DNA of 64,000 nucleotides from Patescibacteria group bacterium (GTDB taxonomy: Bacteria; Patescibacteriota; Minisyncoccia; Phycocordibacterales; UBA918), in NCBI GenBank assembly GCA_019750255.1, contig JAIEOU010000005.1:14078-78077 (forward strand), given 5' to 3'. The notes beneath the pieces are model-generated. The model had not been told where the DNA came from, ran no database searches, and was given only the letters and a program-made list of their open reading frames with translations. Positions 2,219 through 61,626 of this stretch are shown one piece after another; position 1 is the stretch's first letter; every line of letters starts with the position of its first letter. A program made the position numbers and the translations under genes.

Positions 2219-2241
2219 TTTAACCGGTAATTTAATTTAGT

Positions 2242-3309
2242 ATGGCCGTCGACTACAAGCGAGAACTGAATACGCTCATTGACCTGGTTATCGAAGAGCG
2301 TGCCTCAGACCTGCATTTTTCCGTCGGTGCACATCCGATTATCCGCGTCTCAGGTTCTCTGATTCCCTTGTTAAAAAAACCCATCCTTACCGATGAGGAT
2401 ATGCTCGGCTTTGCTAAGGCGCTCATCAGAAAAGATATCTATGAACGCTATGAAGGACGTAAAGAGGTGGACTTTTCTTTTGAGAATACCGAATCCGTCC
2501 GCTTTCGTGGCAATGCGTACTACCAACGCGGACGTATGGCAATTGCCCTTCGCCTCATTCCGAATGTCATTCGTACTTTTGCGGATTTAAATCTGCCGCC
2601 AATTCTGGAAAGCTTTACTCAGCGGCCACAGGGTTTCTTTTTGTGTGTTGGGCCAGTAGGGCAGGGAAAGTCTACGACGCTTGCAGCCATGGTAAATCAC
2701 ATTAACCAAACTCGTTCGGAGCACATCGTTACCATTGAGGACCCTATCGAGTACGTGTACACCGAAGACAAGGCGCTCATTGATCAGCGTGAAGTGGGTA
2801 TCGATACTGAAAGCTTCCAGGTTGCGCTCAACGCTGCCTTTCGTGAAGACGTTGATGTGATTTTGGTAGGTGAGATGCGGAATATGGAAACTATTTCAAC
2901 CGCCGTAACTGCGGCTGAAACCGGCCATTTAGTGTATTCGACCCTTCACACAAATGACGCCGCACAGACCATTAATCGAATCATCGATACGTTTCCGGGT
3001 GACCAGCAAAGCCAAATCCGCACCCAGCTAGCAGGGTCTCTCATTGCTATCTTCTCGCAGCGACTCATTCCACACATTGCGGGTGGTCTTGTGCCAGCGT
3101 ATGAGCTGCTTATCAACAACAGTGCGGTAGCTAACCTAATTCGAGAAAATCGCGTTCATGAGATTAATTCCGTCATCGAGACTGGGCTTGAGCAGGGAAT
3201 GATTGACATGAATCGTTCTCTGTTACGTTTGGTACAGAACGGAGATATTACCGTAGAGAACGCATTTACCTACTCAACCAACCCTAAAGGTCTCGAACGC
3301 CTCATGTAA
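2242..3309 (+). CDS. pilT: Twitching motility ATPase PilT (pilus retraction)
   Basis: 355 aa. Walker A GPVGQGKSTT, the AIRNLIRE-like C-terminal motif (AVANLIRENRVHEI) and a PilT-typical N-terminus. Confidence 0.85.
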   Translation: MAVDYKRELNTLIDLVIEERASDLHFSVGAHPIIRVSGSLIPLLKKPILTDEDMLGFAKALIRKDIYERYEGRKEVDFSFENTESVRFRGNAYYQRGRMAIALRLIPNVIRTFADLNLPPILESFTQRPQGFFLCVGPVGQGKSTTLAAMVNHINQTRSEHIVTIEDPIEYVYTEDKALIDQREVGIDTESFQVALNAAFREDVDVILVGEMRNMETISTAVTAAETGHLVYSTLHTNDAAQTINRIIDTFPGDQQSQIRTQLAGSLIAIFSQRLIPHIAGGLVPAYELLINNSAVANLIRENRVHEINSVIETGLEQGMIDMNRSLLRLVQNGDITVENAFTYSTNPKGLERLM

Positions 3310-3312
3310 TAT

Positions 3313-4530: not shown

Positions 4531-4979
4531 GGAGAAACAGGAAGCGGCGAAGCCGCGACCATGTTTTCCTTATGCAGACGCCTCGTTACTTTCGAGCCTC
4601 AAAGCGAGGAAAGTAACGGCGGCGACCTGCGAAAGGAGACTTTGGATTGCTTCGCTGCGGCTCGCAAAGACGAATGCTGAATACGACTGCTTCGTCTCTG
4701 CGAGTTTACGAAGCAGTCCAGGGTTCCATACCCTTCTTTCGATTACATCACTAAGGCTCGCAAAGACGAAATATAATTTAACCCAATCCTACTAAGTAAT
4801 AGGTGCAGGGGCTTACGGTTTATACGGGAGGTTGTCCCCAGGTCTAGTTTTGTAAGCCGAAGCTGGTCGTATAATTGAGGCTAGCTACGCTACAACGTAG
4901 ATCTGTCGTTTACTATTCAGGTACACAGCTGATATCTGAATATAAAAAGACTTTATTTCAAAACGATTAATTTTAATTC

Positions 4980-5477
4980 ATGATCAAAACCATGCGGACC
5001 CGCGGTTTCACCCTCATCGAACTTCTCGTTGTAATCGCTATTATCGGTATCTTGGCCGCAACGGTACTTGCCGCCCTTGGTAACGCGCGAAGTAGCGGAA
5101 ACGACGCTTCGACGCAGTCGCAAGTTAATTCTGCCAAGGCTCAAGCTGAAGTGTATGCTAATGGTAATACAACAGCTCCCGGAAGTTATGTAGGCCTCTG
5201 TACTGCTGCGAACCCCAACAGCTTGGGTACACTCCTAACGGGTATCGCTCGTACTGCGCCCGGTACCGATGCTGCTGTATTGACTGCCACTGTACAGACT
5301 GCTAACACAGACGGTACTGGGGGTTCGATTAATTGCAGGGATGCCGCAACTACTTGGGTCTTGTCTGCGCCTCTTGCTCGCTCTACGGGAGGTTTCTTCT
5401 GTGCGGACAGTACTGGCTTTAGTGGCGTAAGAACCACGCCACTACCAGCAGCCAATACTGCTTGTCCAGCTTCTTAA
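4980..5477 (+). CDS. pilA: Type IV major pilin (prepilin, class III signal)
   Basis: N-terminus MIKTMRTRGFTLIELLVVIAIIGILAA matches the prepilin cleavage/methylation motif (G|FTLIE). Followed by a rho-independent terminator. Confidence 0.9.
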   Translation: MIKTMRTRGFTLIELLVVIAIIGILAATVLAALGNARSSGNDASTQSQVNSAKAQAEVYANGNTTAPGSYVGLCTAANPNSLGTLLTGIARTAPGTDAAVLTATVQTANTDGTGGSINCRDAATTWVLSAPLARSTGGFFCADSTGFSGVRTTPLPAANTACPAS

Positions 5478-5497
5478 CAATCTTACTGGATAAAAAA

Positions 5498-5522
5498 ACA
5501 CCCGTTCACGGGTGTTTTTTTA
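5498..5522 (+). terminator. Rho-independent terminator after pilA copy 1
   Basis: acacccg-ttca-cgggtgt stem-loop followed by T7. Confidence 0.8.
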
Positions 5523-5604
5523 TTGAAAAACCTACTGGGGAAATCCTACATAAGCACAATGGACTGTGTCATGATTAGGATAAACAATAATTCAACATAC
5601 CATA

Positions 5605-6102
5605 ATGCTTAAACAAACTTATCAAAAGGGCTTCACCCTCATCGAACTTCTCGTTGTAATCGCTATTATCGGTATCTTGGCCGCAACGGTACTTGCCGCC
5701 CTTGGTAACGCGCGAAGTAGTGGAAACGACGCTTCGACGCAGTCGCAGATAAACTCTGCCAAGGCTCAAGCTGAAGTCTATGCGACGGGGAATAACAATT
5801 CTTATGATGGGGTTTGTACGATTGCAAGCGCCAATAGTCTGGGTCCATTGCTGACAGGAATTGTAAGGACAGCACCAGGAAACAACACTCCTGTTATTGA
5901 CGGAGCGGTACAGACAGCAAACACCGATGGTACAGGTGGGACTATTAATTGTAATGACGCGCCTACCGCCTGGGCAGTGTCAGCGCCGCTCAATCGATCC
6001 ACTGGCGGATTCTTCTGTGCGGACAGTAGCGGATTTAGTGGAGTTCGTGTGACGCCGTTACCGGCGAGCGGTGCTACGGGTAGAGTGTGTCCTTCATCAT
6101 AA
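5605..6102 (+). CDS. pilA: Type IV pilin, second tandem paralog
   Basis: Same prepilin N-terminus. The first ~150 nt are nearly identical at DNA level to copy 1 (4998-5150 vs 5623-5775), and the C-terminal globular part diverges. Confidence 0.9.
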   Translation: MLKQTYQKGFTLIELLVVIAIIGILAATVLAALGNARSSGNDASTQSQINSAKAQAEVYATGNNNSYDGVCTIASANSLGPLLTGIVRTAPGNNTPVIDGAVQTANTDGTGGTINCNDAPTAWAVSAPLNRSTGGFFCADSSGFSGVRVTPLPASGATGRVCPSS

Positions 6103-6131
6103 TCTGATTCCGTTAAAAACAGGACTACATC

Positions 6132-6156
6132 AAAGAGCGCCACGAGGCGCTTTTTG
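6132..6156 (+). terminator. Rho-independent terminator after pilA copy 2
   Basis: aaagagcgcc-acga-ggcgcttttt. Confidence 0.7.
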
Positions 6157-6249
6157 TAAACTCCAGATTATTTGTGCTAAGCCTATAAGTGTTAATGGCG
6201 CAGCAACAGAAGACTCCTATGGTTAACTTTTGGCCACGGGAAGGGATGG

Positions 6250-7125
6250 ATGGGCTATAATAGGAACGTGTTTAGTCTAGCTACGCTCGGTCTGTCGACC
6301 CTCGTTCTTTCCATTATTGCCTTTGGCTTTGGAGCTATCGTCGGTAGCTTTCTTAATGTGGTGATTTATCGGTTACATACTGGCCGCTCTCTGCAAGGTC
6401 GGTCCCATTGTCTCTCGTGCGCAACTCCGCTCCGAGTGTGGGAGCTCATACCACTTTTTTCATATCTCGGTCTGCGGGGTCGTTGTAGTCACTGCCGGTC
6501 ACGGTTTACTGCGCGCTACTTTGGGGTTGAGCTTTTGACGGCGCTATTGTTTGTGTTGACGATGCTTTATTTTGCGACTGATGTGGTACTGGTCGGTATA
6601 TTTCTCTTTGTGATGTCACTGCTTGTGGTCGTATTTGTCTATGATCTTCGACACATGATTATTCCTGACGAATATGTCGTGGCGCTTACGCTTGCGGCGC
6701 TCGGCCGAGAATTTTATAGTGCGGTCGTTGTGCTCGGAACATGGGTACCGTTTCTCTACAGTGCATTCGCCGCTTCGACTGGGGCACTATTTTTCTACGC
6801 CCTCTGGTTTATGTCTGGAGGAAAATGGATTGGCTTTGGTGATGTTAAGCTCGCTTGGCCACTGGGACTTCTCCTTGGCAGTGGGGGAGTGTTCTCAATG
6901 GTGGTGTTTTCGTTCTGGATAGGGGCGGGGATAAGTCTATTGCTTCTTGCGCTCATGAAGCTCTCTGCCCGCAGTGGGGGAAAACCGTTCTTACCTTTCG
7001 GTCTCGGAACGCTTACAATGAAGAGTGCTGTTCCGTTTGCTCCTTTCTTGATTGTTAGTTTTCTTACAGTTCTTTTTTTCCAAGTTGATGTGCTCGCCCT
7101 TTTATCCTATGACTTCTTCCTCTAG
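6250..7125 (+). CDS. pilD: Prepilin peptidase PilD (A24 family, with N-methyltransferase Zn-finger)
   Basis: 291 aa, polytopic. Two CxxC pairs (CLSCATPL...CSHCRSRF) sit in the first cytoplasmic loop, and Asp-containing motifs are present. Confidence 0.85.
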   Translation: MGYNRNVFSLATLGLSTLVLSIIAFGFGAIVGSFLNVVIYRLHTGRSLQGRSHCLSCATPLRVWELIPLFSYLGLRGRCSHCRSRFTARYFGVELLTALLFVLTMLYFATDVVLVGIFLFVMSLLVVVFVYDLRHMIIPDEYVVALTLAALGREFYSAVVVLGTWVPFLYSAFAASTGALFFYALWFMSGGKWIGFGDVKLAWPLGLLLGSGGVFSMVVFSFWIGAGISLLLLALMKLSARSGGKPFLPFGLGTLTMKSAVPFAPFLIVSFLTVLFFQVDVLALLSYDFFL

Positions 7126-7726
7126 CACGAAGCCATGCAGAGCGCGTCTGCGCGCAGGTTTTGGTCTCATAGAACTCCTTGTGAGCATCAGTATCATGGT
7201 ACTCGTTACCTCGATTGTGCTCGCGCGGCACTCCGCCTTTAGCGGTACCGTACTTCTGAAATCACAGGCATATGAAATAGCGTTACGGCTACGCGAAATA
7301 CAGCTCTCGGCGGTGAGTGTAGCGACTTCGACTGTCGGCATCCGCTCGCACTATGGTATGCGTTTTGGTACAGCGGCTTCAGAAAATAGCGTCTACCCGG
7401 TTTTTGCGACTCCTATCCCAGCGGTCAATGGCTTCTACACTAATAATGCTTATTCTCTTGTTGGGACTCCGGGGTTACTCGATCAGCGCTTTGTGATTAA
7501 AGGAATTGACCTGAACTGCAGTTCTGTGCAATCAGCTACGGGAGTTATTATTATGTTTAAGCGTCCAAACTATGACGCTGAATTCCGAAGTGGGACTGGC
7601 GGAGCGCCGGCCTGCGCGGCTGAGTCAGTGAGTATTAGGATTGGCCCACGTGGTTCCCTCGTTGGTGATACCGCCTCGGAACGACGTGTTGTTGTTTCGA
7701 GCTCAGGTCAAATCACTGTAGAGTAA
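7109..7726 (+). CDS. Minor pilin / pseudopilin (GspH/FimT-like)
   Basis: After trimming to ATG 7109 the N-terminus reads ...RAGFGLIELLVSISIMVLV, a prepilin signal. Overlaps the pilD end. Confidence 0.7.
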   Translation: MTSSSSTKPCRARLRAGFGLIELLVSISIMVLVTSIVLARHSAFSGTVLLKSQAYEIALRLREIQLSAVSVATSTVGIRSHYGMRFGTAASENSVYPVFATPIPAVNGFYTNNAYSLVGTPGLLDQRFVIKGIDLNCSSVQSATGVIIMFKRPNYDAEFRSGTGGAPACAAESVSIRIGPRGSLVGDTASERRVVVSSSGQITVE

Positions 7727-7730
7727 TTTT

Positions 7731-8402
7731 ATGATTCCAACAAAGCTTTCACAGCGACGCGGTTTCACTCTCATCGAGATGATTGTTTCGTTGGGAGTGT
7801 TTTCGGTGGTGGTGACCATTACGGCCGGGGCGCTTATTACCTTAATTGCAACAAACCAGCGCTTTCAGCGTGAGCAAAATACGACAACGAACTTGGCCTT
7901 TGCGCTTGACAGTATGACTCGTGAAATTCGCACCGGGTCAAATTTTTACTGTGCGACCGGCACGGGAACACCTTTTGATAATGGAGCCCATGAACATCTT
8001 TCTGGTGGAGTCATTGACGCAGGGGTTGGCTCATCGTTGCTACGGCGCGATTGTCCAGACGGAAGAAATGGAGAAAGTCTCCATGGGATATCTTTCTTTG
8101 AGGGGGGGAATAGCATCACGACGGACCCGGGGGTTAGGCGTATCCTCTATTATTTTGACCTGACGGCCGGTACTATCTATCGACGTGTCGGGGATGAAAG
8201 GCCAGAACAGATTATTTCAAATACCATTGAAATTGTTGATGCTGATATTTATGTTACCGACACCAACATTATGCTTGCCACACCTGCGGATACAAAACAG
8301 CCCACAGTAACCATTCATATCGAAGCTCGGGATCGTTCTGAGCCAAGTAGTGAGACGTACCTCATGCAAACGACTGTAACGCAGCGGTCACTTGATATAT
8401 GA
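7731..8402 (+). CDS. Minor pilin (PilW/PilV-like prepilin)
   Basis: RRGFTLIEMIVSLGVFSVVV prepilin N-terminus. Confidence 0.7.
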   Translation: MIPTKLSQRRGFTLIEMIVSLGVFSVVVTITAGALITLIATNQRFQREQNTTTNLAFALDSMTREIRTGSNFYCATGTGTPFDNGAHEHLSGGVIDAGVGSSLLRRDCPDGRNGESLHGISFFEGGNSITTDPGVRRILYYFDLTAGTIYRRVGDERPEQIISNTIEIVDADIYVTDTNIMLATPADTKQPTVTIHIEARDRSEPSSETYLMQTTVTQRSLDI

Positions 8403-8993
8403 AAAATCTACTACCCAGCTTATTACAGTTAACGAGACATAAAAATGGTTTTTCACTGGTGGAAACGCTGGTCGCAGTCTCCATCCTTCTCCTTGTTGTG
8501 GTTGGTCCCTTGACGATTACGTCGCGGACGGCGAAAAGTAGCACCTTTTCGAGTGAGCAATTGACTGCTCAATTACTCGCTCAAGAAGGACTGGAACTGG
8601 TGGAAAAAGCGCGTAATGACTACATTCTTGAGAATTTCACCAATGCAGCTAACGGTGGCTGGGATGCATTCACCTCAGGAAGTGGTGTTTTTTCACAGTG
8701 CTTTGACACCGATGGTTGTGGTATCGACATTGAAGATTCTGGTGACATTAACTTTCCATTAAAGGCATGTGATATCGCCGGGAGTCCAGATCCGTGCGCA
8801 CTCTACCAAGGAGCGGCAGGTGAGCGGGCGCGGTATTCGCACACTACCGGTGGTACCCTGACTCCGTTTACTCGCACTGTGCGCTTTTACTCGACCACAA
8901 ATCCTGATCAGATTCGCGTGGAATCAACCGTTACCTGGCGTACGGGTTCCCTGATTGCCAATCAACGGGTAGAGCTCGAGACGTATTTATTTA

Positions 8994-9010
<17 letters not shown>
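8399..9010 (+). CDS. Minor pilin (prepilin-type N-terminus)
   Basis: NGFSLVETLVAVSILLLVVVGP prepilin motif. Overlaps neighbours by 4 nt. Confidence 0.65.
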
Positions 9011-11673
<2,663 letters not shown>

Positions 11674-14144: not shown

Positions 14145-14214
14145 AGCGGGGTAGAGGAGCGGTACCTCGGGAGGCTCATAACCTCCAGACCCCGGTTCGA
14201 TTCCGGGCCCCGCA
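14145..14214 (+). tRNA. tRNA-Met (anticodon CAT), initiator-like
   Basis: Cloverleaf with anticodon loop cuCAUaa. Initiator hallmarks are A11:U24 and a 1:72 mismatch (A.A); only 2 of the 3 G-C pairs are in the anticodon stem. CCA is not encoded. Confidence 0.7.
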
Positions 14215-14223
14215 ACACGATAG

Positions 14224-14252
14224 AAAACCCCAGGCAAAAGCCTGGGGTTTTC
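14224..14252 (+). terminator. Rho-independent terminator
   Basis: aaaaccccagg-caaaag-cctggggtttt. Confidence 0.8.
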
Positions 14253-14320
14253 TAGTATTGCATGACTAAGATCCAGCTACATAAGCAGGTGAATTTGTTG
14301 TAAGACCGGTTGAGGTCGTT

Positions 14321-23185: not shown

Positions 23186-23256
23186 TGGGATATCGTCTAA
23201 TGGTAGGACAGAGGCCTTTGAAGCCTTTAATTGGGGTTCGAATCCCTGTATCCCAG
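23186..23256 (+). tRNA. tRNA-Gln (TTG)
   Basis: U1-A72 acceptor (UGGGAUA/UAUCCCA), anticodon loop cuUUGaa, T-arm GGGGTTCGAATCCCTG and discriminator G. Resembles E. coli tRNA-Gln. Confidence 0.85.
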
Positions 23257-23262
23257 CTCATA

Positions 23263-23292
23263 GAAAAACAACCACTCTTGTGGTTGTTTTTC
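23263..23292 (+). terminator. Rho-independent terminator after tRNA-Gln (centre of a nested palindrome)
   Basis: aaaaacaaccac-tctt-gtggttgttttt. Confidence 0.8.
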
Positions 23293-23295
23293 GTT

Positions 23296-23321
23296 TATGA
23301 GCTGGGATACAGGGATTCGAA
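23296..23321 (-). repeat. Inverted 26-nt copy of the tRNA-Gln 3' half
   Basis: tatgagctgggatacagggattcgaa is the reverse complement of tRNA 23231-23259. Confidence 0.85.
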
Positions 23322-23433
23322 AAGCGCAGCAATGTGAGGAGCTTTTACTAAAGCGACGAACCAGCGAGCTGGGGTCGAGAGCACTTACTAGAATTGGAGC
23401 GTCAGCGAACAATTATAGTTAGTGACTCGTGAC

Positions 23434-23454
23434 CGAATCCCTGTATCCCAGCTC
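23434..23454 (+). repeat. Direct 21-nt partial copy of the tRNA-Gln 3' half, followed by a terminator-like hairpin
   Basis: cgaatccctgtatcccagctc, then aaaacacccg-tca-gggtgctttt (23458-23481). Confidence 0.8.
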
Positions 23455-23486
23455 GAGTAAAACACCCGTCAGGGTGCTTTTACGTA

Positions 23487-23537
23487 GTGCTGGGATACGT
23501 AAGGTCTGGGAGACCTTGCGTCAGGGATTCGAAACCC
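23487..23537 (-). repeat. Second inverted tRNA-Gln 3' fragment, split by a 23-nt palindromic insert
   Basis: gctgggatac + gtAAGGTCTgggAGACCTTgcgt + cagggattcgaa. Confidence 0.65.
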
Positions 23538-45428: not shown

Positions 45429-45436
45429 AGGCAAGT

Positions 45437-45726
45437 ATGATGATCGCCCTTTCTTCGTAAGAAGGTGGGGAGGAAAGTCCGAACACGTCCTGGGTGACCA
45501 GGAGTAGGGTAGCGGGTAACCCCCGTCCGCCGCGAGGCGCGAGGTGCGAACAGAGACGCCCAAAGTGAAAATGATGGGCTTCCTTCGTAAGAAGGAAGAG
45601 TCGTCACGGTAACGTGTCGGGTGAAACGGCAAAATCCTTACCTACGTGCAAGGCCGTGCTATCGGTAACGGCGGCAACGCCCGAACTGATAGAGAGCCGC
45701 TTGAGGGTGATGGTAACATCATTCCT
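45437..45726 (+). ncRNA. rnpB: RNase P RNA (bacterial type A, reduced ~290 nt)
   Basis: Universal P4 motif GGAGGAAAGTCCG. AGGGTAgCGGGTAACCCC, ACAGAGA, GGGTGAAACGG, and AGAGCCGCTTGA (the P4 3' strand) are also present. The 5' ATGATG pairs with the 3' CATCAT as P1. Confidence 0.8.
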
Positions 45727-45780
45727 AGGTATATGATCATCCTGTACGCATGTGCAGACAGAATTCGGCTTATATACATG

Positions 45781-45815
45781 AAACGCTGCGCCACTTAAGG
45801 CGCGGCGTTTCTTTT
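45781..45815 (+). terminator. Rho-independent terminator after rnpB
   Basis: aaacgctgcgcc-acttaa-ggcgcggcgtttctttt. Confidence 0.75.
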
Positions 45816-50333: not shown

Positions 50334-52133
50334 ATGAACACCACTATTCGCAATTTTAGTATTATCGCTCACATCGACCATGGAAAGTCGACCTTGGCTG
50401 ATCGTATGCTCGAAATCACCAAGACCGTCGAGGCCCGCAAAATGAAGGATCAGGTCCTTGACTCGATGGAGCTCGAGCGAGAGCGGGGTATCACTATCAA
50501 AATGCAGCCGGTGCGTATGCGTTACGATTATAAGGGGCAACCGTTTGAATTAAATCTCATCGATACTCCCGGACATATCGATTTTTCCTACGAGGTCTCT
50601 CGTGCGCTAAAAGCAGTTGAAGGAGTGTTGCTGCTTGTTGACTCTACTCAAGGCATTCAGGCGCAGACGCTTACTACCCTGCAAATGGCCAAAGACCAGG
50701 GTCTCACTATCATTCCGGTGCTGACTAAAATCGACGTGCCGCACTCGCGTGTTGCGGATGTGAGTGACGAGGTGGTGACGCTCCTTGGCTGTGCGCCGGC
50801 AGATATCATGTGTGTGTCTGGCAAGACGGGAGAGGGGGTTAGGGAGCTCCTGGAGGCGCTCTGCGAGCGTATCCCACCACCGCGTCCCAGCGAAACCACG
50901 ACAGGTTTCCGAGGACTAATTTTTGATTTTCAATACAGTAACCATCGTGGAGTGATTGTGTATTTCCGTGTCTTTGACGGTGAGGTAAAGAAGGGTGATG
51001 TGTTACGGTTTATCGCTAGTGGCAAGAGCTTTACGGCGCTTGAGGTAGGGATTGTTACCCCTGAACAGCAGCCCGTGTCGTCACTCCTCGCTGGCGAAAT
51101 TGGCTACATCGTGACTGGGATAAAAGAGCCTGGAGTGGCGTCGGTAGGTGACACCCTTACGCAAGACAAAACTCCACTTCCGGCACTCCCTGATTATGCC
51201 CAAGCGCGACCGGTAGTGTGGGCGTCGGTGTTTCCCGATAACCAAGATGACTTTACTATGCTTCGCCAGGCTCTCGATCGTCTTAAACTCTCCGACTCAT
51301 CGTTGTCGTATGAAGAAGAGTCTTCTGGAGTACTTGGTCGTGGTTTCCGTTGTGGCTTTCTCGGCATGCTCCATCTTGAAATTGTCACCGAGCGTTTGCG
51401 TCGGGAATTTGATATTGAAATCATCATTACGGCGCCATCGATTGCCTACGAAGTCACCTACCTGGACGATGGGCGAATTGAGCATATATATGCCGCTTCG
51501 CGTTTCCCTGATCATGGTGACAAGGTTTCGGTACGTGAACCTTGGATTCTGGGCCAAATCTTTCTCCCCCCTCTGTATATGGGTGGTATTCTCACCCTGT
51601 TGTATGAGCATGAAGGAAGTGTGATCGATACTGAAGTGTTTCGGGATGGGCGCAATCTCCTAACGCTCGAGATGCCTCTGCGCGAACTCATGCGAAACTT
51701 TTTTGACAAACTAAAAAACGTCTCAAGTGGCTACGCTTCGCTTTCCTACGAAATTGCTGAGATGCGTCCGGCTGATGTGGTGCGACTTGATATTTTGGTT
51801 TCAGAAGAACTTATCCCGGCATTTTCACGAGTGGTTGGGGCGCGCAAGGCTGAATTTGATGCGAGGGCAATGGTTGAAAAACTTCACGACACCATGCCGC
51901 GACAACAATTTGTGCTTAAGATTCAAGCGATGGTGCGAGGTAAGGTCATTGCATCGCGTTCACTCTCGGCTTTGCGTAAAGATGTAACGGGGTACCTCTA
52001 TGGTGGCGACATTACTCGAAAAATGAAGCTCCTGCAAAAGCAGAAGGAAGGGAAGAAGAAAGCCCTCGAACGGGGTAAGGGTAATGTGCACATTCCTCAA
52101 GAAGTATTCATGAAAATGGTTAAATCAGACTAA
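50334..52133 (+). CDS. lepA: Elongation factor 4 (LepA)
   Basis: G1 AHIDHGKST and G3 DTPGH. LepA-specific C-terminal domain. Confidence 0.95.
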   Translation: MNTTIRNFSIIAHIDHGKSTLADRMLEITKTVEARKMKDQVLDSMELERERGITIKMQPVRMRYDYKGQPFELNLIDTPGHIDFSYEVSRALKAVEGVLLLVDSTQGIQAQTLTTLQMAKDQGLTIIPVLTKIDVPHSRVADVSDEVVTLLGCAPADIMCVSGKTGEGVRELLEALCERIPPPRPSETTTGFRGLIFDFQYSNHRGVIVYFRVFDGEVKKGDVLRFIASGKSFTALEVGIVTPEQQPVSSLLAGEIGYIVTGIKEPGVASVGDTLTQDKTPLPALPDYAQARPVVWASVFPDNQDDFTMLRQALDRLKLSDSSLSYEEESSGVLGRGFRCGFLGMLHLEIVTERLRREFDIEIIITAPSIAYEVTYLDDGRIEHIYAASRFPDHGDKVSVREPWILGQIFLPPLYMGGILTLLYEHEGSVIDTEVFRDGRNLLTLEMPLRELMRNFFDKLKNVSSGYASLSYEIAEMRPADVVRLDILVSEELIPAFSRVVGARKAEFDARAMVEKLHDTMPRQQFVLKIQAMVRGKVIASRSLSALRKDVTGYLYGGDITRKMKLLQKQKEGKKKALERGKGNVHIPQEVFMKMVKSD

Positions 52134-52211
52134 ATGTCTGATTTAAGACCTTACCAGATACTTTTGAGTTTACGAAAAAGTAGCGACAAGGTGTACTGGC
52201 ACCTGTAAGGT

Positions 52212-52318
52212 GAAGAGTGACTAGATGTCACTCTGCCAGACTCATTGAGAATTTTGCGAGTGGGCGAGCAAAAGTCCAATGAGTGGACAGGCCGCTGTAA
52301 GCGGAAGGGTGACTAAAA
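52212..52318. repeat. Dispersed ~100-nt intergenic hairpin repeat, family B, copy 1
   Basis: atgtcactctgcCAGACTCATTGag...CCAATGAGTggacag..ctgtaagcgg. A second copy is at 54821-54925 with conserved arms and a variable centre. Confidence 0.6.
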
Positions 52319-53322: not shown

Positions 53323-53982
53323 ATGGCAAGTCGCCTTACAAGTGAAGCCGTAGAAGAGATTATAAACTTAAGAAAAACTGGTCATAGTTTGCCAGAGATA
53401 CGGCGAATTACAGGTCGTTCAAACGGTACCGTTTATAATTTGATCTCAAAAACTAATGTTCTGCCAGAATTCGCGTCACTTTTAAAATCAAAGCAAGGTG
53501 GTAGTAAAGAAAGGGCACGAATAGCATGGGAAAGTGCACGCTCTCATGCAAGCAGTATCATTCCCGAAATTTTTTCGCAACAGAGTATTCTTTTAGTGCT
53601 TGCGGCACTATACTGGGGTGAGGGGACGAAGCATGAGCTCAACATAATAAATGGTGACCCTTGTCTGCTACGCACAACCGTTATTGGACTTCGTGCGCTA
53701 GGCGTTCATGATGATGAATTCCGCGTTACGGTTAGGTTGTTTGGAAAGATGCCCGAAGTAGATGCTATAAACTACTGGTCTACAGCTGTTGATGTTCCAA
53801 AACACCAGTTCATAGGTATTGAACGATTGCCGGGTAACGAAAGTAAAAAGCTCCCTCGTGGAATGTGTCGTATCCGAGTTGCAAAAGGAGCAAAGTATTT
53901 CAAACTTATTATGAGTATGATAGATTTGATCAAATCTCAAAATTGCCCTGGTAGTTCAATGGATAGAACTTCGCACTCCTAA
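53323..53982 (+). CDS. HTH + LAGLIDADG-like putative homing endonuclease (paralog of 16941..17558)
   Basis: HTH SLPEIRRITGRSNGTVYNLISKT and motif LAALYWGEGTK. Its last 38 nt overlap tRNA-Arg, and its stop codon lies in the tRNA anticodon loop. Confidence 0.5.
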   Translation: MASRLTSEAVEEIINLRKTGHSLPEIRRITGRSNGTVYNLISKTNVLPEFASLLKSKQGGSKERARIAWESARSHASSIIPEIFSQQSILLVLAALYWGEGTKHELNIINGDPCLLRTTVIGLRALGVHDDEFRVTVRLFGKMPEVDAINYWSTAVDVPKHQFIGIERLPGNESKKLPRGMCRIRVAKGAKYFKLIMSMIDLIKSQNCPGSSMDRTSHS

Positions 53983-54016
53983 CGCGAGAATTCAGGTTCG
54001 ACTCCTGACTAGGGCA
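53945..54016 (+). tRNA. tRNA-Arg (CCT)
   Basis: Acceptor GCCCTGG/CTAGGGC, anticodon loop cuCCUaa and T-arm TCAGGTTCGACTCCTGA. No intron. Confidence 0.75.
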
Positions 54017-54037
54017 CAGAGCTGGTATACTAAAGTT

Positions 54038-55198: not shown

Positions 55199-55711
55199 TT
55201 ACTTCTGTACCGCGTTTGTCCGAACTCTAAGCTGCGTACTCCTTTGCTTATCGAGCTTTGGTAGGCGAATCTCAAGCATGCCATGCTTTTCCTGTGCTTC
55301 TGCCTCGTCAATTACAATTTCTTCGGGAAGAAGAATCGACCTCGAGAAGCTGCCCCAGAATAGCTCCCGGTTCTGGTAGTTGTCTTCATGTGTTTCTTGG
55401 AACTCTTCGCGCACGCCACGAATAGTAACCATATCCCGGGTGATTGAAATATCTAAATCTGTTGGACTAACACCGGCCACCAGGGCGCGAATGACGATAG
55501 TGTCGTTTGTTTGGTACATGTCGACGGGAAGTTCGCCCTCTTGTGGGCTACGGGCTGCGCCGGGTTCGCTTTGCCAATTGTCGTCTTCGTCTTGGGTCTC
55601 ATCCTCGGCACTATCGTCGTCACCAAAATGGCGATTATCATCCAGGATGCGGTCGTAATCTTCGCCAGGTGTGGCGCCGGTGAGTCGTTCTAAGAATGAC
55701 GGTTTTTTCAT
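55199..55711 (-). CDS. Hsp20/alpha-crystallin family small heat-shock protein (second copy)
   Basis: Alpha-crystallin domain (DMYQTNDTIVIRALVAGV...MLEIRLPK). Overlaps the prsW stop, so the two are likely co-transcribed. Confidence 0.85.
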   Translation of the reverse strand: MKKPSFLERLTGATPGEDYDRILDDNRHFGDDDSAEDETQDEDDNWQSEPGAARSPQEGELPVDMYQTNDTIVIRALVAGVSPTDLDISITRDMVTIRGVREEFQETHEDNYQNRELFWGSFSRSILLPEEIVIDEAEAQEKHGMLEIRLPKLDKQRSTQLRVRTNAVQK

Positions 55712-56436
55712 AGTGATGATGGCGCGGGGTTAGTGTCTGATGACTCAAGCAATTTTACTTTTTCAAAGAGAAGAAACAGCATGATGATGCCCATCCAGAC
55801 GAACAGAAATACTCCGAGAATCGTCTCTCCGCTTGCGTCTAGTATAAAAAAGTTAAAGAGCGCATGCAATACGATGGCAATGAATAACCCAACGGTGGCA
55901 TAGACGAGTCTCATGAAGGGTCGTTTATAAAAACCGAGCGCTAGAGCCATACCAACGGTTCCGGAGGCAAGGACGTGAAGTAGGGTGGCGCCAAGGAAAC
56001 GGAAGGTGCCCGCGAGCGCAGAGTCGAGATAGGCTCCTTCGCCCAATGGTCTAAAGATAAAGAGTGCGTTCTCTAGGGCAGCAAACCCAAGCGCAATCAC
56101 AATCATATAAATGACCATATCAATCGGCTCATCGACTTCACGGCGCCACAAGATCACGATGAGCGCGACGGCGTACTTGAGCACCTCTTCAATAATTACC
56201 CACAAGGTCATCAAATTATCACTAGGCGGATAGCACATGCCGGCCTGCATTATGTCGCAGGCAAATTTCTGCAGCGGTAGAGCCAGGGGTACTACCATCA
56301 TGCCCGCGATAAAGGTAATGGCGATAAGGAGGTATGGTTCAGGACGGGTACGGTCCTCTCGCAGCCAAAACCACAACCAAAATAGGGCGGGAATAAGACC
56401 GCCGAGAAAGGCTATGGCAAAGACGGTTGACGTCAT
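55708..56436 (-). CDS. PrsW-family intramembrane metalloprotease
   Basis: Six to seven TM helices. Motifs EEVLKYAV (EExxK), GFAALENALF (FxxxEN) and HxxxxG. Confidence 0.6.
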   Translation of the reverse strand: MTSTVFAIAFLGGLIPALFWLWFWLREDRTRPEPYLLIAITFIAGMMVVPLALPLQKFACDIMQAGMCYPPSDNLMTLWVIIEEVLKYAVALIVILWRREVDEPIDMVIYMIVIALGFAALENALFIFRPLGEGAYLDSALAGTFRFLGATLLHVLASGTVGMALALGFYKRPFMRLVYATVGLFIAIVLHALFNFFILDASGETILGVFLFVWMGIIMLFLLFEKVKLLESSDTNPAPSSL

Positions 56437-56560
56437 GGGTGTAGGTATTGTAACAAGCGCGGCGGCCCTGTAGGGCCGCCGCGCTTGTGTTCTGGGGACG
56501 TGGCTATGATGTAGAGTAGCTCGCCACCGCTACTTTTTTAGTATTGAGACAGAACTCGAT

Positions 56561-56940
56561 TCCTTAGTAAGTCGCTGCCACTGGTTTTTTCGCTCCGAAG
56601 CTTAAAACCAGTGAAGCGATTACATAAAGAAAACATAGTCGGTACTTCGTACCTTCTTGTTTCTCCTTAGTAAGTCGCTGCCACTCGTTATCTCGCTTTG
56701 AATCTCGAAACGAGTGAAGTGATTTCACCACAAGGGTACTTCATTTTTATAGTCGCTAGGCTCCTTAAAAATTGGTCGCATAAGGAAAGTATAGTCGGCC
56801 TGTGGCCTCCTTACTTCTCCTTATTATTTCTGCACAGCAGCTCGCCGCCGCTACTTTCCTCGCTTTGATGCTCGAAAGTAGCGAGGCGCCTGCATAATCA
56901 AAATATAGTCGTAGCTGCGCTACTCCTTATTTCTGCACAG
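56561..56940. repeat. Tandem array of ~100-nt degenerate structured repeats, overlapping the valS 3' end
   Basis: Units begin at 56561, 56664, 56763, 56808, 56818 and 56924, each with tcctta. Every full unit has a 9-10-bp hairpin of different sequence but maintained pairing, then gtgaagYgatt, atagtcg and a mini-hairpin. Confidence 0.7.
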
Positions 56941-59182
56941 GCCACTTCGCAACCATAAGGATTTCACGATCTTTGAGGTTTTTTGGTAGTTCTTGCCAAA
57001 TCGTTTCAGTAACAAACGGCATGAACGGGTGTAGTAATTTTAGGGAGGTGACTAGACATTCAGCTAATACGGCTTGTCTCGATTGTTTTGCTGCCCTGTC
57101 GTTACCGCTAAGAATGGTTTTAGACTCCTCTAAAATCTGATCGGCTAATTCGTGCCAGACGTAATGGTACGCTTTTTCAGCAGCGAGGTGCAAAGAGAAT
57201 TTTTCAATATCGGTTGTTATTTCATTGACCGTGCTCTTCAGTTGACTAAGTATTTCTGTGTCACGTTCAGTTAGCGGTATCGATTCCTGTGGCGTGTAGC
57301 CTTCAATGGAGGTCAAAGTAAAGCGTGTGATGTTCCAGAGCTTGTTGGCAAAGTGTTTGTAGCCTTTAGTCTTTTGCTCAGAGAGAGGGAGATCGTTTCC
57401 GGGAGCGACACCAATGATAAGCGAAAGGCGCACGGCATCTGCACCGTACTTGGCAATCATGTCGAGCGGGTCGATGATGTTACCTAGACTCTTGCTCATC
57501 TTGCGATTCTGCTCATCTCGAACCAGTCCGTGAAGGTACACGTTCTTGAACGGCACTTGTCCTAGGTGGAATGTGGACATAAGGACCATTCGAGCCACCC
57601 AGAAGAAGAGAATGTCATACCCGGTTTCAAGAACACTCGTCGGGTGGTAGGTGGCAAGATCTTTCGTTTTTTCTGGCCAGCCTAATGTTGAAAAGGTCCA
57701 CAAACCAGAAGAGAACCAGGTATCGAGTGTGTCGTTATCTTGTTCCCAGCCATCGCCCTCAGGTGCCGTGGTGTCGCAAAAGACTTCACCGTTTCTGTAC
57801 CAGACTGGTATTCGGTGTCCGTACCAAATCTGCCGTGAAATACACCAGTCTCGTAGGTTTTCAATCCAGTGGTAATAGATACGCTTGAATCGCTCGGGGA
57901 AAATATCGGTTCCACCGTGCTCTACCGCAGCGACCATAAGTTCCTTTAAGGTTACCGAGCTGCCACTTGCGACGCCAGGGATTTCTGAGTGTGGAAGAAT
58001 AAACTTTTTATTGACGTCTATGAACCACTGCTCTTTAATTTGCGGTTCGATAGTACCGCCACCGCGACTATTGGTGGCGACATTGTGTACATATTTTTCG
58101 TCGATTTTATCCACTAAGCCCTTTGACTGTAACTTTTCGATAATAGCAGCACGAGCTTTTTTGATGTGGGTGCCAGCAAACTCTCCGGCAATAGGGAGCA
58201 ATAATCCACGCTCATCGATTACTTGTTGTGTATCGAGTTTGTGTCGTTCAGCAATTTCAAAGTCGGTTGCATCATGCCACGGAGTAATCGTCATTACGCC
58301 CGTACCAAACTCCATGTCGATACTTTCGTCCTTGATTACCGTTGCGGTAATCGGACCGTTAATCCACTCGACCTCTAGCGTTTGTCTGTGGACGTAATCT
58401 TTGTAGCGCTGGTCTTCTGGGTGCATGACCACGTACTTATCGCCAAACTTTGTTTCGGGGCGGGAGGTACCAATGACAAATGGTCCGTACTTGAGGTAGT
58501 AAAACTGATCAGTTTGCTCAACGTGTTCAATTTCGTCGTCAGACACCGTGGTCTGCATCTTTGGGTCCCAGTTTACAATGCGGGCCCCGCGGTAAATGAG
58601 ACCAGCTTCATACATGTTCTTAAACGCCGTCATAACTGCCTTGTATCGCGGTTCATCGAGCGTAAAGGCATACCGTGACCAATCAAGGGAAGATCCCATG
58701 CGTTTGGTTTGGTTGATGATGGTGTCTTTACTCGCTTCAGCAAAGGCGTACACGCGCTTCAAGAACTCTTCCCGTCCAAGGTCGTGCCGGGTTTTTCCCA
58801 CTGCCTTATAAATTTCACTTTCCACTTTTGATTGTGTAGCAATGGCTGCAGAATCAGTACCTGGTATCCATAAGGTACGCTTTCCGAGCATTCGGGAATA
58901 ACGAACAAGGATGTCTTCAACAGCGAGCATAGCGGCGTGTCCCATATGAAGAGTGCCTGTAACATTTGGAGGCGGAAGGACAATCGAAAAGGTATCTGCG
59001 TCTGGTGCCGCAACGCCATGTTCTATGCAGATATCCGGATTAAAAAAACCGCTCTTTTCCCAGTGCGTATAGATACGGTCTTCGTGATCTTTAGGTTCAA
59101 ACGGTTTAAGAAAAACTTCGGGAATGTTTGGGGCGGAGGGCTTTGTTGAATCGCTCATAAATACGGTTAATTTAAAGCGCAT
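56927..59182 (-). CDS. valS: Valyl-tRNA synthetase
   Basis: HIGH (PNVTGTLHMGHA) and KMSKS motifs, plus editing and anticodon-binding domains. At 751 aa it is shorter than typical ValS, consistent with a reduced C-terminal coiled coil. Confidence 0.95.
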   Translation of the reverse strand: MRFKLTVFMSDSTKPSAPNIPEVFLKPFEPKDHEDRIYTHWEKSGFFNPDICIEHGVAAPDADTFSIVLPPPNVTGTLHMGHAAMLAVEDILVRYSRMLGKRTLWIPGTDSAAIATQSKVESEIYKAVGKTRHDLGREEFLKRVYAFAEASKDTIINQTKRMGSSLDWSRYAFTLDEPRYKAVMTAFKNMYEAGLIYRGARIVNWDPKMQTTVSDDEIEHVEQTDQFYYLKYGPFVIGTSRPETKFGDKYVVMHPEDQRYKDYVHRQTLEVEWINGPITATVIKDESIDMEFGTGVMTITPWHDATDFEIAERHKLDTQQVIDERGLLLPIAGEFAGTHIKKARAAIIEKLQSKGLVDKIDEKYVHNVATNSRGGGTIEPQIKEQWFIDVNKKFILPHSEIPGVASGSSVTLKELMVAAVEHGGTDIFPERFKRIYYHWIENLRDWCISRQIWYGHRIPVWYRNGEVFCDTTAPEGDGWEQDNDTLDTWFSSGLWTFSTLGWPEKTKDLATYHPTSVLETGYDILFFWVARMVLMSTFHLGQVPFKNVYLHGLVRDEQNRKMSKSLGNIIDPLDMIAKYGADAVRLSLIIGVAPGNDLPLSEQKTKGYKHFANKLWNITRFTLTSIEGYTPQESIPLTERDTEILSQLKSTVNEITTDIEKFSLHLAAEKAYHYVWHELADQILEESKTILSGNDRAAKQSRQAVLAECLVTSLKLLHPFMPFVTETIWQELPKNLKDREILMVAKWPVQK

Positions 59183-59235: not shown

Positions 59236-60396
59236 TTACGAAAGAGATTTGTTCCCCTGTGCCCGAAGCTCCCGGGCACCGATCGGAGTGAGCGATGACG
59301 AAAGGTGGGCATGGGCCGCGAGCGCAATCATTACGCTATTATCAGTCGAAAGAGCGATACTCGGTAGGTGGACCTGAAGGTGGGGAAAGGCCAGGGTGGT
59401 GCCAAGAGCGCTAATGCTTTCCCGTAGACGCGCATTAGCAGCGACGCCACCACCAAGAATGACGCTGGCTGCTCCATGCGTCTCTACTGCCTTGGTTAAT
59501 TTAGCAATAAGAACGTGAACGGCTGCATCCTCAAAATCGCGCGCCAGCGCTCTGACCTCGTCGTCAGTGAGGGACTTTTCAGCAATACCGTAGCGGACGG
59601 CGGTCTTGAGTCCAGAAAAAGAGAAGTCCAGGTCCCCTGAATGCAGCATTGGCCGGGGGAGGGAAATATACTCCGGTAGGGAAGCTTTGCGCGCTTCGTC
59701 CGCTCTACGGCTGATTTCTGGTCCTCCGGGATACGGAAGTCCGAGCAGTCGCGCTACTTTATCAAAGGCTTCGCCAACGGCGTCATCGCGCGTCTGTCCG
59801 ATAAGTTCATAGCGGCCCCATTCCTTCATGAGTACTAGTTCGGTGTGGCCACCTGAGACGAGGAGGGCAACGGATGGGAAGGAGAGGTTTGCTAAGCTGC
59901 TTCCGTCAAAGACGGAGGCGAGGATGTGCCCTTCCATATGATTGACGGGGATTACTGGAACATTCCACAGGTGAGCTAGCGCTTTGGCAAAGTTTATGCC
60001 AACCCAGAGGGCGGGCTCAAGCCCGGGTCCATTCGTAACACCGATAGCGTCGATGGGCGGAACGCCATGCTCCTCGTGAAAGGTGAGAAGTTGGTGACAG
60101 AGACCTGGTTCACGGGTGAGTAGGTCTTCTAGCAGAGATTCATCCCGGGTACCGTGCGGATGGGCACCGGTTAACCCGGCTTCCTTAATCGCTTTCTCCA
60201 GCATCGGAACGACCGTCGCTATATGTTCGCGTTTTGCAATAAGCGGAAAGACGCCGCCGTACTCACGATGTATATCAATCTGTGAAAACAGCGCGTTACC
60301 AAGCACCTTATATCTAGCATGAGGAAAATCGCCCGCTGCTTCGACTATACTGATAGCGGTTTCGTCGCAACTGGTTTCGATAGAAAGGAGAAGCAT
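59236..60396 (-). CDS. tsaD: tRNA N6-adenosine threonylcarbamoyltransferase TsaD (Kae1/Gcp)
   Basis: N-terminus LLSIETSCDETAISIV, two His metal ligands (HMEGH) and an ASKHA fold. Confidence 0.9.
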   Translation of the reverse strand: MLLLSIETSCDETAISIVEAAGDFPHARYKVLGNALFSQIDIHREYGGVFPLIAKREHIATVVPMLEKAIKEAGLTGAHPHGTRDESLLEDLLTREPGLCHQLLTFHEEHGVPPIDAIGVTNGPGLEPALWVGINFAKALAHLWNVPVIPVNHMEGHILASVFDGSSLANLSFPSVALLVSGGHTELVLMKEWGRYELIGQTRDDAVGEAFDKVARLLGLPYPGGPEISRRADEARKASLPEYISLPRPMLHSGDLDFSFSGLKTAVRYGIAEKSLTDDEVRALARDFEDAAVHVLIAKLTKAVETHGAASVILGGGVAANARLRESISALGTTLAFPHLQVHLPSIALSTDNSVMIALAAHAHLSSSLTPIGARELRAQGNKSLS

Positions 60397-61263: not shown

Positions 61264-61478
61264 TAGTACAGGGTAGCGCGTAAGTGAGTGGAGTCAAGGA
61301 AGGGTGCGGGACTCGACCCGCAATCGCGGATTTTGTTGCGTCTTTAAGAGTAATTATTTACGGACTCGGTCACGAATCACTAAGTATATTTGTTCGTCTG
61401 CGACTCCAAATCTACTAAGTGTTCTTGACCACGGCTCACTGGTTCGTCGCCCAAGGGAAGGGGCGACTCACATCGCTG

Positions 61479-61504
61479 CGCCTTTCGAGTCCTGTGTCGC
61501 GCAC
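61479..61504 (+). repeat. Inverted, degenerate copy of the tRNA-Val 3' end
   Basis: The reverse complement gtgcgcgacacaggactcgaaaggcg matches 61553-61578 at 22 of 26 positions. A nested hairpin (gggtcatgc-aca-gcatgaccc) separates the two copies. Confidence 0.7.
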
Positions 61505-61553
61505 ATAAAGCAAAGAAGGGTCATGCTGTGCATGACCCGACTTATTGCTTTAG

Positions 61554-61626
61554 TGCGCGATACAGGACTCGAACCTGTGACCTCCACAATGTCAATGTGA
61601 TGCTCTACCAGCTGAGCTAACCGCGC
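61554..61626 (-). tRNA. tRNA-Val (GAC)
   Basis: The reverse complement is GCGCGGT-TA-GCTCAGCTGGTAGAGC...anticodon loop uuGACau...GGTTCGAGTCC...ATCGCGC-A. Confidence 0.85.

Follow-up and report, generated by a model that had tools for sequence, protein, structure and literature searches.

A 423-nt block of tandem hairpin units lies at the 3' end of valS, the gene for valine-tRNA ligase, on the minus strand of a 64,000-nt stretch of a Patescibacteria (Candidate Phyla Radiation, CPR) genome with a GC content of 49%; this whole stretch is referred to below as the window. The units are probably copies of a non-autonomous two-hairpin repeat, specific to its clade, which inserts at the 3' ends of genes, has accreted in valS, and probably also serves as a hairpin of the 3' untranslated region (3' UTR). 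The clade to which the family is confined is narrow (Paceibacteria or Kaiserbacteria-like Patescibacteria), and the distribution of its copies suggests that it is probably mobile. A first-pass annotation, made from the letters alone, had described a local array seeded from the valS 3' end. The features that it listed, namely repeats, hairpins, mini-hairpins, a 14-nt duplicate of the valS end and AAGGAG boxes, were all recovered at the same positions; the proposed origin from valS was not borne out.

Organization of the array and its units

The unit is ~105 nt long and non-coding, and on the gene-sense strand it comprises two modules, a T hairpin and an H hairpin, as derived from alignment A3 of both complete array units and two homologues. 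The T module consists of an A-rich arm (CTAAGGAGAAACAnGAAG) with AAGGAG, a 3-5-bp mini-hairpin, an invariant-like CGACTAT and a T-rich arm that finishes with TTATGC. The closure of the mini-hairpin is C-GNA-G in six of eight T modules, with GAA, GCA, GGA or GUA loops. The H module is an imperfect stem of ~20 bp in three segments, interrupted by a one-base bulge and including a conserved U·G pair. Within its 15-nt loop (GAGCaTCAAAGCGAG) is a separate 2-bp apical stem between GA/GA flanks.

The inserted block occupies positions 56517-56939 (minus strand), between ...AAGTGGCC of valS and the likely displaced original end of this gene, and spans about four periods of 103 nt. Only two of its units are complete and three are partial; the block is also not purely intergenic, since it begins inside valS (56927-59182, minus strand) at 56939. 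Unit A (56836-56941, minus strand; covariance-model matches of 120.5 and 108.9 bits) is complete, with the mini-hairpin GTAGC-GCA-GCTAC at 56911-56923 and a perfect 10-bp H stem at 56849-56858/56874-56883. Unit C (56566-56671, minus strand; 116.3 and 109.7 bits) is likewise complete, with the mini-hairpin GGTAC-GAA-GTACC at 56641-56653 and a perfect 10-bp H stem at 56579-56588/56604-56613. The partial unit a2 (56735-56825, minus strand; 35.6-65.4 bits) has a T module in which the AAGGAG arm is duplicated internally and the mini-hairpin reads GCC-ACA-GGC (gcc-tgt-ggc on the plus strand, 56798-56806); its H hairpin is replaced by a different module, X (cattttta/taaaaatt, 56742-56773), which also occurs as an inverted pair at 8424-8590 of locus L040 (retrieved loci and contigs are numbered L001 and upward). 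Unit B (56672-56724, minus strand) retains the H hairpin only, matching model positions 51-103 with E=3.7e-5; its stem cactcgtt/aacgagtg was read from the sequence at 56682-56689/56709-56716. The degenerate last unit (56517-56565, minus strand) keeps just a TAAGGAA start and the H 3' arm and tail (AAAAGTAGCGGTGGCGAGCTA), and the repeat search gives it 76% identity to the H arm of unit A.

A core of ~64 nt is present three times, at 56561-56624, 56664-56727 (83%) and 56831-56894 (63%), with spacings of 103 and 167 nt, and the repeat search also found three copies of a CATAAnnAAAnnATAGTCG box in the array. The 14-nt copy of the valS end (ctgtgcagaaataa) is situated at 56824-56837, just before a2, and matches 56927-56940 exactly. 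As the first-pass annotation had noted, AAGGAG recurs on the valS strand, with five occurrences in the block and none on the opposite strand. The composite AAGGAG-N-CGACTAT-N-ATG was found four times in the array, nowhere else in the 64 kb and in none of 100 shuffles. The array folds better than shuffled sequence on both strands (z = -6.8 for the valS strand and -6.1 for the plus strand). Tandem Repeats Finder reported no array, because only units A and C are complete.

Conserved pairing and strand preference

Both hairpins are maintained by compensatory changes between subfamilies. RNAalifold on four units predicted 34 pairs, of which 15 show compensatory two-sided changes and none a single-sided change. 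When seven units were placed on the covariance model, 96.4% of the cells fell in standard pairs and 21 of 34 pairs changed on both sides. For ten units from five genomes, 93.8% of the cells pair, compared with 75.9±1.4% in shuffled columns and at most 49% with slid partners; 22 of 33 pairs vary on both sides, and the observed covariation was reached by none of 500 shuffles. Over both unit sets the controls range over ~76-78% for shuffled columns and up to ~51% for slid partners. The seven- and ten-unit alignments were fitted to the model, which favours structure, and the margin is large all the same. The claim that the hairpin arms differ between units while staying complementary therefore stands against the shuffled controls that had been named as its test, and neutral decay of local duplicates is insufficient to explain pairing kept beyond both controls.

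The pairing is not symmetrical between strands. On the gene-sense strand there are 18 G·U cells and 3 C·A cells, with two G·U positions conserved, and the sense-strand fold is more stable by 6-9 kcal/mol in four of five full forward units. The G·U pairs, the fold energies and the orientation of the units favour the gene-sense strand. GC skew is positive over the whole window, and the pilC unit described below and the valS array have opposite orientations relative to it; relative to their respective upstream genes they are oriented alike, which argues for an orientation linked to transcription or selection. Mini-hairpins of the d(GNA) type are very stable, and the C-GNA-G closure seen here matches the known type (PMC13037366, PMC3201870). 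Since this is a classic stable DNA mini-hairpin, the structure may also be read on folded DNA.

Dispersed copies and their relatedness

Covariance models R1 and R2, built from the units, were used together with pattern searches to find further copies. The best match (125.6 bits) is a single dispersed unit at 4526-4631 (plus strand), 52 kb from the array. It starts at the stop of pilC (3313-4530, identified by Pfam T2SSF) and lies between pilC and pilin genes. Outside the window, full units were found in only four genomes, all of related Patescibacteria. L001 has units at 6298-6401 and 6343-6452, in both orientations, between valS and prsW (its valS is 83% identical to that of the window). In L003, a unit at 9969-10066 exactly fills the gap between the lepA stop and the stop of a convergent small open reading frame (ORF). 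The L114 unit (14147-14254) lies 27 nt past a phosphoribosyltransferase gene, within another repeated motif, and L126 has a sense unit at the pilC stop (3696-3799) followed by an inverted one (3857-3916). The 80 closest valS loci among GTDB representative genomes all belong to metagenome-assembled genomes, whose labels are nearly always Paceibacterota, Kaiserbacteria, Saccharibacteria, Parcubacteria or Patescibacteria, and the covariance models found no unit in the remaining 78 of them (682 kb). Pattern scans of JGI metagenomes yielded none apart from L003's own sample and chance matches, and no unit was found in reference phages and plasmids or in IMG/VR.

Independent Logan short-read contigs from several samples end inside the unit hairpins, namely the 5' ends of L081-L083 (equivalent to window position 56590) and the 3' ends of L127 and L128. 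These breaks indicate that the elements disrupt de Bruijn assemblies and are probably under-sampled in metagenome-assembled genomes.

Drift of duplicates within the array, as first proposed, is at odds with the relatedness of the copies. Unit A has 83% identity both to the pilC copy and to L001 6298-6401 but only ~68% to unit C of its own array. Units B and C, which are adjacent, are 83% identical. Unit C matches the inverted post-pilC unit of L126 at 58 of 66 positions (88%) with an identical stem, and the stem sequence of unit B recurs in the post-pilC unit of L126. Since A is nearer to the pilC and L001 copies than to C, and C is near the L126 copy, the array holds at least two subfamilies that diverged beforehand. 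It therefore grew by successive insertions or by accretion, to which some local duplication may have contributed. The same subfamilies occupy different loci in different genomes. Four-fold degenerate sites are near saturation (31-51% identical between the window and L001, 32-39% in other pairs), and despite this the units are 83-88% identical across genomes and loci. The pattern fits a repeat element that spread recently, or movement combined with very strong constraint, and does not fit local duplication followed by drift.

Filled and empty sites at valS and pilC

The closest valS relative, on the 486-kb JGI contig L114 (protein 91% identical), has a valS-prsW spacer of 69 nt without a unit. 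Its order is ...AAGTGGCC CTCTAATTAG CGACGTCCCCAG, a hairpin, TACAAT and ATG, with nothing between AAGTGGCC and CTCTAATTAG. The spacer is likewise short and unit-free in L115, L116 and L129. The window keeps both flanks, with ...AAGTGGCC on the left and CTCTACATCATAG CCACGTCCCCAG followed by the hairpin on the right. Local alignment of the L114 valS end and spacer with the right array edge gives a score of 46, reached by none of 2000 shuffles. The shared flanks and the empty L114 site together identify 56517-56939 as an insertion into the last codons of valS. At 56504-56516 (minus strand), CTCTACATCATAG, the counterpart of CTCTAATTAG in L114, is a probable relic of the original last codons and stop, now non-coding; it matches at 10 of 13 positions with two gaps, most of the score of 46 coming from the conserved downstream spacer and hairpin. 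The ancestral valS-prsW spacer (56447-56503, minus strand) comprises CCACGTCCCCAG, a perfect 17-bp hairpin at 56453-56488 and, 10 nt ahead of the prsW ATG, a TACAAT box. It lies outside the repeat family and is conserved in L001, L114, L115, L116 and L129.

The last three valS codons and the stop (GTG CAG AAA TAA, 56927-56938) lie inside unit A and give the C-terminus VQK*. Because valS reads into the first unit and its original end was likely displaced, the repeat most likely rewrote the valS end and was not born from it. The ctgtgcagaaataa sequence is the left arm of an A-type unit, aligns with CTAAGGAGAAACAAG in other units, and recurs in L001 ~60 nt downstream of the valS stop. Derivation of the H arms from the valS end was also considered and rejected: the shared GGYGGCGA is a microhomology, and the window valS end matches the right array end no better than chance (1423 of 2000 shuffles).

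In L001, a composite of H-reversed, T, H and T-reversed modules stands between 22-nt direct repeats of the valS end (0 of 2000 shuffles), and the right-hand copy is the decayed original valS end. The 3' site of pilC is filled in the window and in L126 (92%) and empty in L117-122 (94%), L130 (90%) and L123 (84%); PilC has 405 aa in all filled and empty genomes compared. The pilC-pilin intergenic site is an insertion hotspot. At the same position L123, from the L001 genome, has a two-gene insert (3805-4277) with a HicA-toxin-family gene and a small upstream ORF without a family match, which may be a toxin-antitoxin pair.

Unrelated genes carry units in gene-sense orientation at their stop codons or across them, and inverted copies are present in L001 and L126. 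The search for the same array downstream of valS in relatives, suggested in the first-pass annotation, gave a divided answer: units exist in the L001 valS-prsW spacer and in other genomes, whereas the closest valS relatives are empty. For this reason a reading that we had first favoured was weakened, namely an orthologous valS unit held by long-term purifying selection in the window and L001, with a unit at 83% identity against saturated four-fold sites; the valS site is empty in L114 (91%), L129, L115 and L116.

Coding, promoter and family searches

The ORFs that follow the ATGs of the units are not conserved between units: unit C reads ATG-TAA, the L003 unit ATG-TAG, and the L001 unit has no ATG. 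A small peptide, MQAPRYFRASKRGK, is common to unit A and the pilC copy and is rejected by the other units. These results do not support the small-ORF leader array that had been suggested. Promoter-like sites in the array are at chance level (one found, 0.9 expected) and prsW has its own promoter behind a strong hairpin, which speaks against the small RNA (sRNA) genes or attenuator of the same proposal. An RNA thermometer or Shine-Dalgarno sequestration for prsW-hsp20 was also rejected, since prsW owns a TACAAT box behind a conserved hairpin and units occur at unrelated genes too. No Rfam family fits the units; the best score, 28.4 bits against a threshold of 58, falls on the prsW-proximal hairpin, and Rfam on the whole window returned tRNAs and RNase P only. 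Exact-protein look-ups of valS and of a 56-aa ORF gave nothing useful.

Interpretation and alternatives

In the explanation that we prefer, a non-autonomous repeat that inserts at gene 3' ends, the hairpins would be cis-acting signals read on a folded single strand by a trans-acting enzyme encoded elsewhere, by analogy with REP/REPIN sequences, IS200/IS605-derived palindromic elements and integron attC sites. They would be kept because propagation needs them. An inserted unit would be transcribed as the 3' UTR of the upstream gene and would there probably act as a transcript-end hairpin, that is, as a barrier, terminator or stabilizer. Such a role would account for the gene-sense orientation bias and for the G·U pairs. 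The structured 3' UTR of the first-pass annotation is therefore possible as a secondary function.

Several observations weigh against an inserting repeat. The units have neither terminal inverted repeats nor a consistent target-site duplication: TAA flanks units A and C on either side, and likewise the L003 and L126 units, but not the pilC or L114 copies, and no clear target duplication is seen at the window valS, while L001 has its 22-nt repeat. The left flanks of the insertions (GGCC, CTTC, GCGAC, AATG) share no tetranucleotide. The two window loci are opposite with respect to replication and alike with respect to the upstream gene, which argues against a lagging-strand single-stranded DNA transposon of the IS200/IS605 type. 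Copy number looks low, with two loci in 64 kb, zero to two units per 10-22-kb locus in relatives, and five positive genomes only. Pfam searches of 54 window ORFs found no transposase, RAYT, integrase, reverse transcriptase or Nop/Tas protein, so the mobilizing enzyme is hypothetical. Finally, the patchy distribution could have arisen if an old insertion was later lost precisely, between the direct repeats on its flanks, and the high identity of the units could reflect purifying selection for a host function and not recent movement.

A host-selected cis-acting RNA element, a structured 3'-UTR module kept at the ends of transcription units, is the most serious alternative; we hold it to be possible though doubtful, and it is not mutually exclusive with a repeat. 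Such a module might terminate transcription in an unconventional way, insulate transcription, serve as a processing site of the RNase III type or block 3' exonucleases; the valS array would shield valS and the prsW-hsp20 stress operon from each other as an insulator in several copies. In agreement with this, units are always at transcription-unit ends and mostly gene-sense, their orientation tracks the gene and not GC skew, and the G·U pairs and fold energies are on the side of the mRNA strand. The L003 unit exactly occupies the gap between two convergent stops, units are far better conserved than synonymous sites, and the window and L001 both keep an H-like hairpin after lepA. The mini-hairpins also score as weak terminators on both strands (six found, 0.8 expected). 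However, an intrinsic (Rho-independent) terminator has a GC-rich stem with a U-tract immediately after it, whereas the T mini-hairpin stems are only 3-5 bp with a sense-strand U-rich tract beginning ~6-7 nt past the stem, and the H module has no U-tract. Many other window genes have canonical A-tract/hairpin/T-tract terminators, the closest relatives do without the unit at both valS and pilC, identical stems appear at different loci in different genomes, and L001 and L126 contain inverted copies.

Miniature site-specific cassettes present a different form of mobility. Here attP- or attC-like units would be integrated into gene 3' ends by a tyrosine or other structure-specific recombinase, each unit bringing a replacement gene end and accreting in tandem at one attachment site. 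This is quite unlikely in our estimate, although the 22-nt direct repeat around the L001 composite, with its right copy as the decayed original end, speaks for it, as do the 14-nt repeat around unit A and the repeated hits on the same gene ends in separate lineages. Integron attC sites are strand-specific imperfect hairpins with a bulge and a mismatch, and the units have such hairpins, with a conserved bulge and mismatch. Cousin elements adjoin tRNA genes and carry copies of tRNA 3' ends (see below). On the other hand, there is no integrase among the scanned window ORFs and no attC core (RYYYAAC/GTTRRRY) in the sequence, the pilC and lepA copies have no long flanking repeat, and tandem slippage would also yield the 14-nt repeat. 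A broader form of the idea, which we rate as unlikely but slightly less so, is that in CPR bacteria the units and their tRNA-linked cousins together make up a class of miniature integrative cassettes not described before. Hairpin modules of ~100-200 nt would be inserted at the stop-codon ends of conserved genes and at tRNA 3' ends, either by a structure-specific recombinase or through an RNA-mediated route. Each module would copy the 3' end of its target or take its place, and modules would accrete in tandem, in an integron-like or CIME-like manner, without cassettes or a known integrase and with site rules of their own.

The model of the first-pass annotation, local tandem duplication from the valS 3' end with drift under selection on the hairpins (as an attenuator, sRNA family or small-ORF array), is very unlikely and already contradicted by the dispersed copies and the empty sites in relatives. 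It does explain the 103-nt periodicity, the exact 14-nt copy of the valS end with its stop, and the 83% identity of adjacent B and C, which fits one local duplication; the covariation that it invoked is real. Nevertheless, the unit also exists away from valS and in other genomes, unit A is nearer to the pilC copy than to C, and the supposed valS end aligns with the A-rich arm of every unit and in L001 is found in the spacer, off the valS stop. The mini-ORFs are unconserved and the promoter-like sites at the expected number. A guide-RNA array of the TIGR type (tandem stem-loop arrays with variable palindromic stems in CPR bacteria, PMC12045711) can practically be dismissed: the likeness of tandem hairpins with variable complementary stems in a CPR genome is superficial, no Nop-domain Tas protein is present among the ORFs scanned, the unit is ~103 nt and not ~36-60 nt, the loops of 15 and 3 nt are too short for two 8-12-nt spacers plus box C/D motifs, no TGATGA (box C core) was seen by eye, without a dedicated search, the nearest being TGATGC in one loop, and single units occur at gene ends too.

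Other repeats in the clade

A second conserved element of ~170-200 nt is located directly downstream of tRNA genes. In the window it was found at 23258-23530 (plus strand), after tRNA-Gln (23186-23257), and at ~61290-61552 (minus strand), after tRNA-Val (61553-61626). Further copies are at ~8480-8692 of L041 and ~14290-14420 of L114, both on the minus strand after tRNA-Phe, and at 9150-9315 of L006 (minus strand). The element starts with a terminator-like hairpin and then TTTATG (not in L041), continues with an inverted copy of the 3' end of its own tRNA (T-arm and acceptor), and finishes with a direct copy of that end; the flanking copies vary with the tRNA (Gln, Val, Phe). Its core, ...GGTCGAGAACACTTAGTAGATTTGGAGTCGnAGACGAACAAATATACTTAGTGATTCGTGACCGAG..., which comes after the inverted copy, is near-invariant in four of the five copies, from three genomes, the L114 copy having a divergent hairpin stem. 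No Rfam match was found. The tRNA-linked element and the H module both contain a GA-flanked mini-hairpin within a hairpin, and the element gives weak R1 and R2 matches. It could be an unknown RNA gene or a target-copying element.

Another repeated module has two parts, TTCGTCTTTGCGAGCC...GCGAA and GCAATCCAAAGTCT, which are contiguous after the pilC unit (window 4632-4780, plus strand; copies at 4658-4673 and 4753-4768). The two parts are split by a T+H unit in L114 (14120-14146 and 14255-14275) and, at the same point, by an X module in L040 (8400-8500). The intergenic repeats of the clade are thus nested mosaics of several module types.

The lepA 3' flank of the window (52125-52245, plus strand) is ~85-90% identical by eye to that of L001 (9420-9530, minus strand), with saturated synonymous sites. 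One of its hairpins lies over the stop (TCAGACTAAATGTCTGA), one is H-like (CTACTTTT-GAGT..CGA-AAAAGTAG-CGAC), and a third shows compensatory G-C to A-T changes. At the lepA 3' position L003 has a full T+H unit.

Gene context of the array

The minus-strand gene order is tsaD (59236-60396), valS, prsW (55708-56436) and hsp20 (55199-55711), with a 490-nt gap between valS and prsW on the same strand; genes for a DHHA1 protein and a TPR protein and lepA are further neighbours. The valine-tRNA ligase (751 aa; Pfam tRNA-synt_1 and Anticodon_1) is full length for the clade. A truncated valS was suspected since the Anticodon_1 match ends at profile position 106 of 148, and was ruled out because 80 of 80 clade homologues finish 1-8 residues beyond the conserved KWP motif. 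Decayed C-terminal coding sequence of valS in the spacer was rejected as well, every frame being full of stops.

The GC-rich, perfect hairpin upstream of prsW is kept in every relative, with compensatory differences between genomes (L001 6540-6610, L114 12263-12331, and also L115, L116 and L129). It is followed at once by the TACAAT box, ~10 nt before the prsW start codon and without a Shine-Dalgarno sequence. This arrangement resembles a terminator or insulator placed directly against the promoter of an almost leaderless mRNA. Elsewhere the window contains a bacterial class A RNase P RNA (132 bits, 45432-45784, plus strand) and eight tRNA genes; a type IV pilus operon at 40-9010 includes pilB, pilT and pilC together with genes for several pilins and a prepilin peptidase. 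A 219-aa ORF (53323-53982, plus strand) has a sub-threshold HTH_38 match only (19.4 bits, cut-off 27) and extends into tRNA-Arg (53945-54017); it may be mis-called, or be a decayed DNA-binding or transposase-like gene.

Significance

CPR genomes are small and streamlined, and we found no description of such repeats in them in the literature. If the preferred reading is correct, a structured repeat built of modules can spread between CPR lineages that diverged deeply, land repeatedly on the stop-codon regions of conserved genes (valS, pilC, lepA) and rewrite the C-terminus of an essential aminoacyl-tRNA synthetase. The hairpin covariation would then reflect the needs of a repeat element and not a riboswitch-like regulator, which is a warning for RNA-motif discovery pipelines. 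Should a dedicated enzyme indeed read the hairpins, it would represent a new structure-specific DNA/RNA recognition system in an uncultured phylum.

Comparison with known systems

REP/REPIN sequences occur in tens to hundreds of copies per genome together with a RAYT (Y1 HUH) gene, and BIMEs are mosaics of modules. The units resemble them as short, non-coding, imperfect palindromes that are extragenic and typically just past genes, single or clustered, of several module types (here T, H, X and Z) and in either orientation; between subfamilies the hairpin is conserved rather than the sequence. REP-type repeats are thought to act also as mRNA 3' stabilizers or terminators (PMC3733652, PMC3337134, PMC3479197). 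In contrast to REP/REPIN, a 20-40-bp imperfect palindrome tagged at one end by a conserved tetranucleotide, GTAG or CGTC (PMC3733652), the unit has ~105 nt, two different hairpins and no such conserved tag. GTAG is found only in A-type unit stems; at the equivalent position the pilC copy has GTAAC and the B/C-type units have CAGTGG, and L003 likewise lacks GTAG there. The low-looking copy number, overlap of stop codons, rewriting of a C-terminus, Patescibacterium host and lack of a RAYT among the 54 window ORFs scanned also differ from REP.

Like miniature inverted-repeat transposable elements (MITEs), the units are small and non-autonomous, have strong secondary structure and no coding capacity, and show filled and empty sites among relatives. 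They can lie within or over gene ends and can thereby alter the terminus of the protein or of the transcript; among MITEs, the Rickettsia palindromic elements and the Neisseria Correia elements are known to enter coding ends. However, the unit ends (CTAAGGAGAAAC... and ...GCGACYTRC) are not reverse complements, the inverted repeats being internal hairpins, and there is no consistent target-site duplication, a strong gene-sense bias and no related autonomous insertion sequence identified. The IS200/IS605-derived PATEs have a subterminal imperfect hairpin near each end, are strand-specific, and lack terminal repeats and target duplication (PMC6006769). Similarly, the T hairpin starts ~8 nt from the left end of the unit and the H hairpin ends ~1-5 nt from the right end, with strand-specific structure and neither terminal inverted repeats nor evident target duplication. 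The unit departs from PATEs in having no conserved 4-5-nt target on the left, an orientation set by the gene and not by the replication strand, and no TnpA or TnpB seen.

With TIGR arrays (PMC12045711) the units share tandem hairpins with variable palindromic stems in CPR genomes, whereas Tas, box C/D motifs and spacer-sized loops are missing and the period is three times longer. Integron attC sites are closer, as imperfect hairpins of ~60-140 nt that conserve structure over sequence, with strand-specific irregularities, directly past stop codons and in tandem arrays; the units differ from them in having two hairpins each, no R'' (RYYYAAC) or R' (GTTRRRY) cores, no cassette ORFs, no intI or attI, and no integrase in the scanned window ORFs. 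Although it fails the tested defining features of each of these families, the element behaves like a REP/BIME/REPIN, MITE or PATE repeat, and partly like attC.

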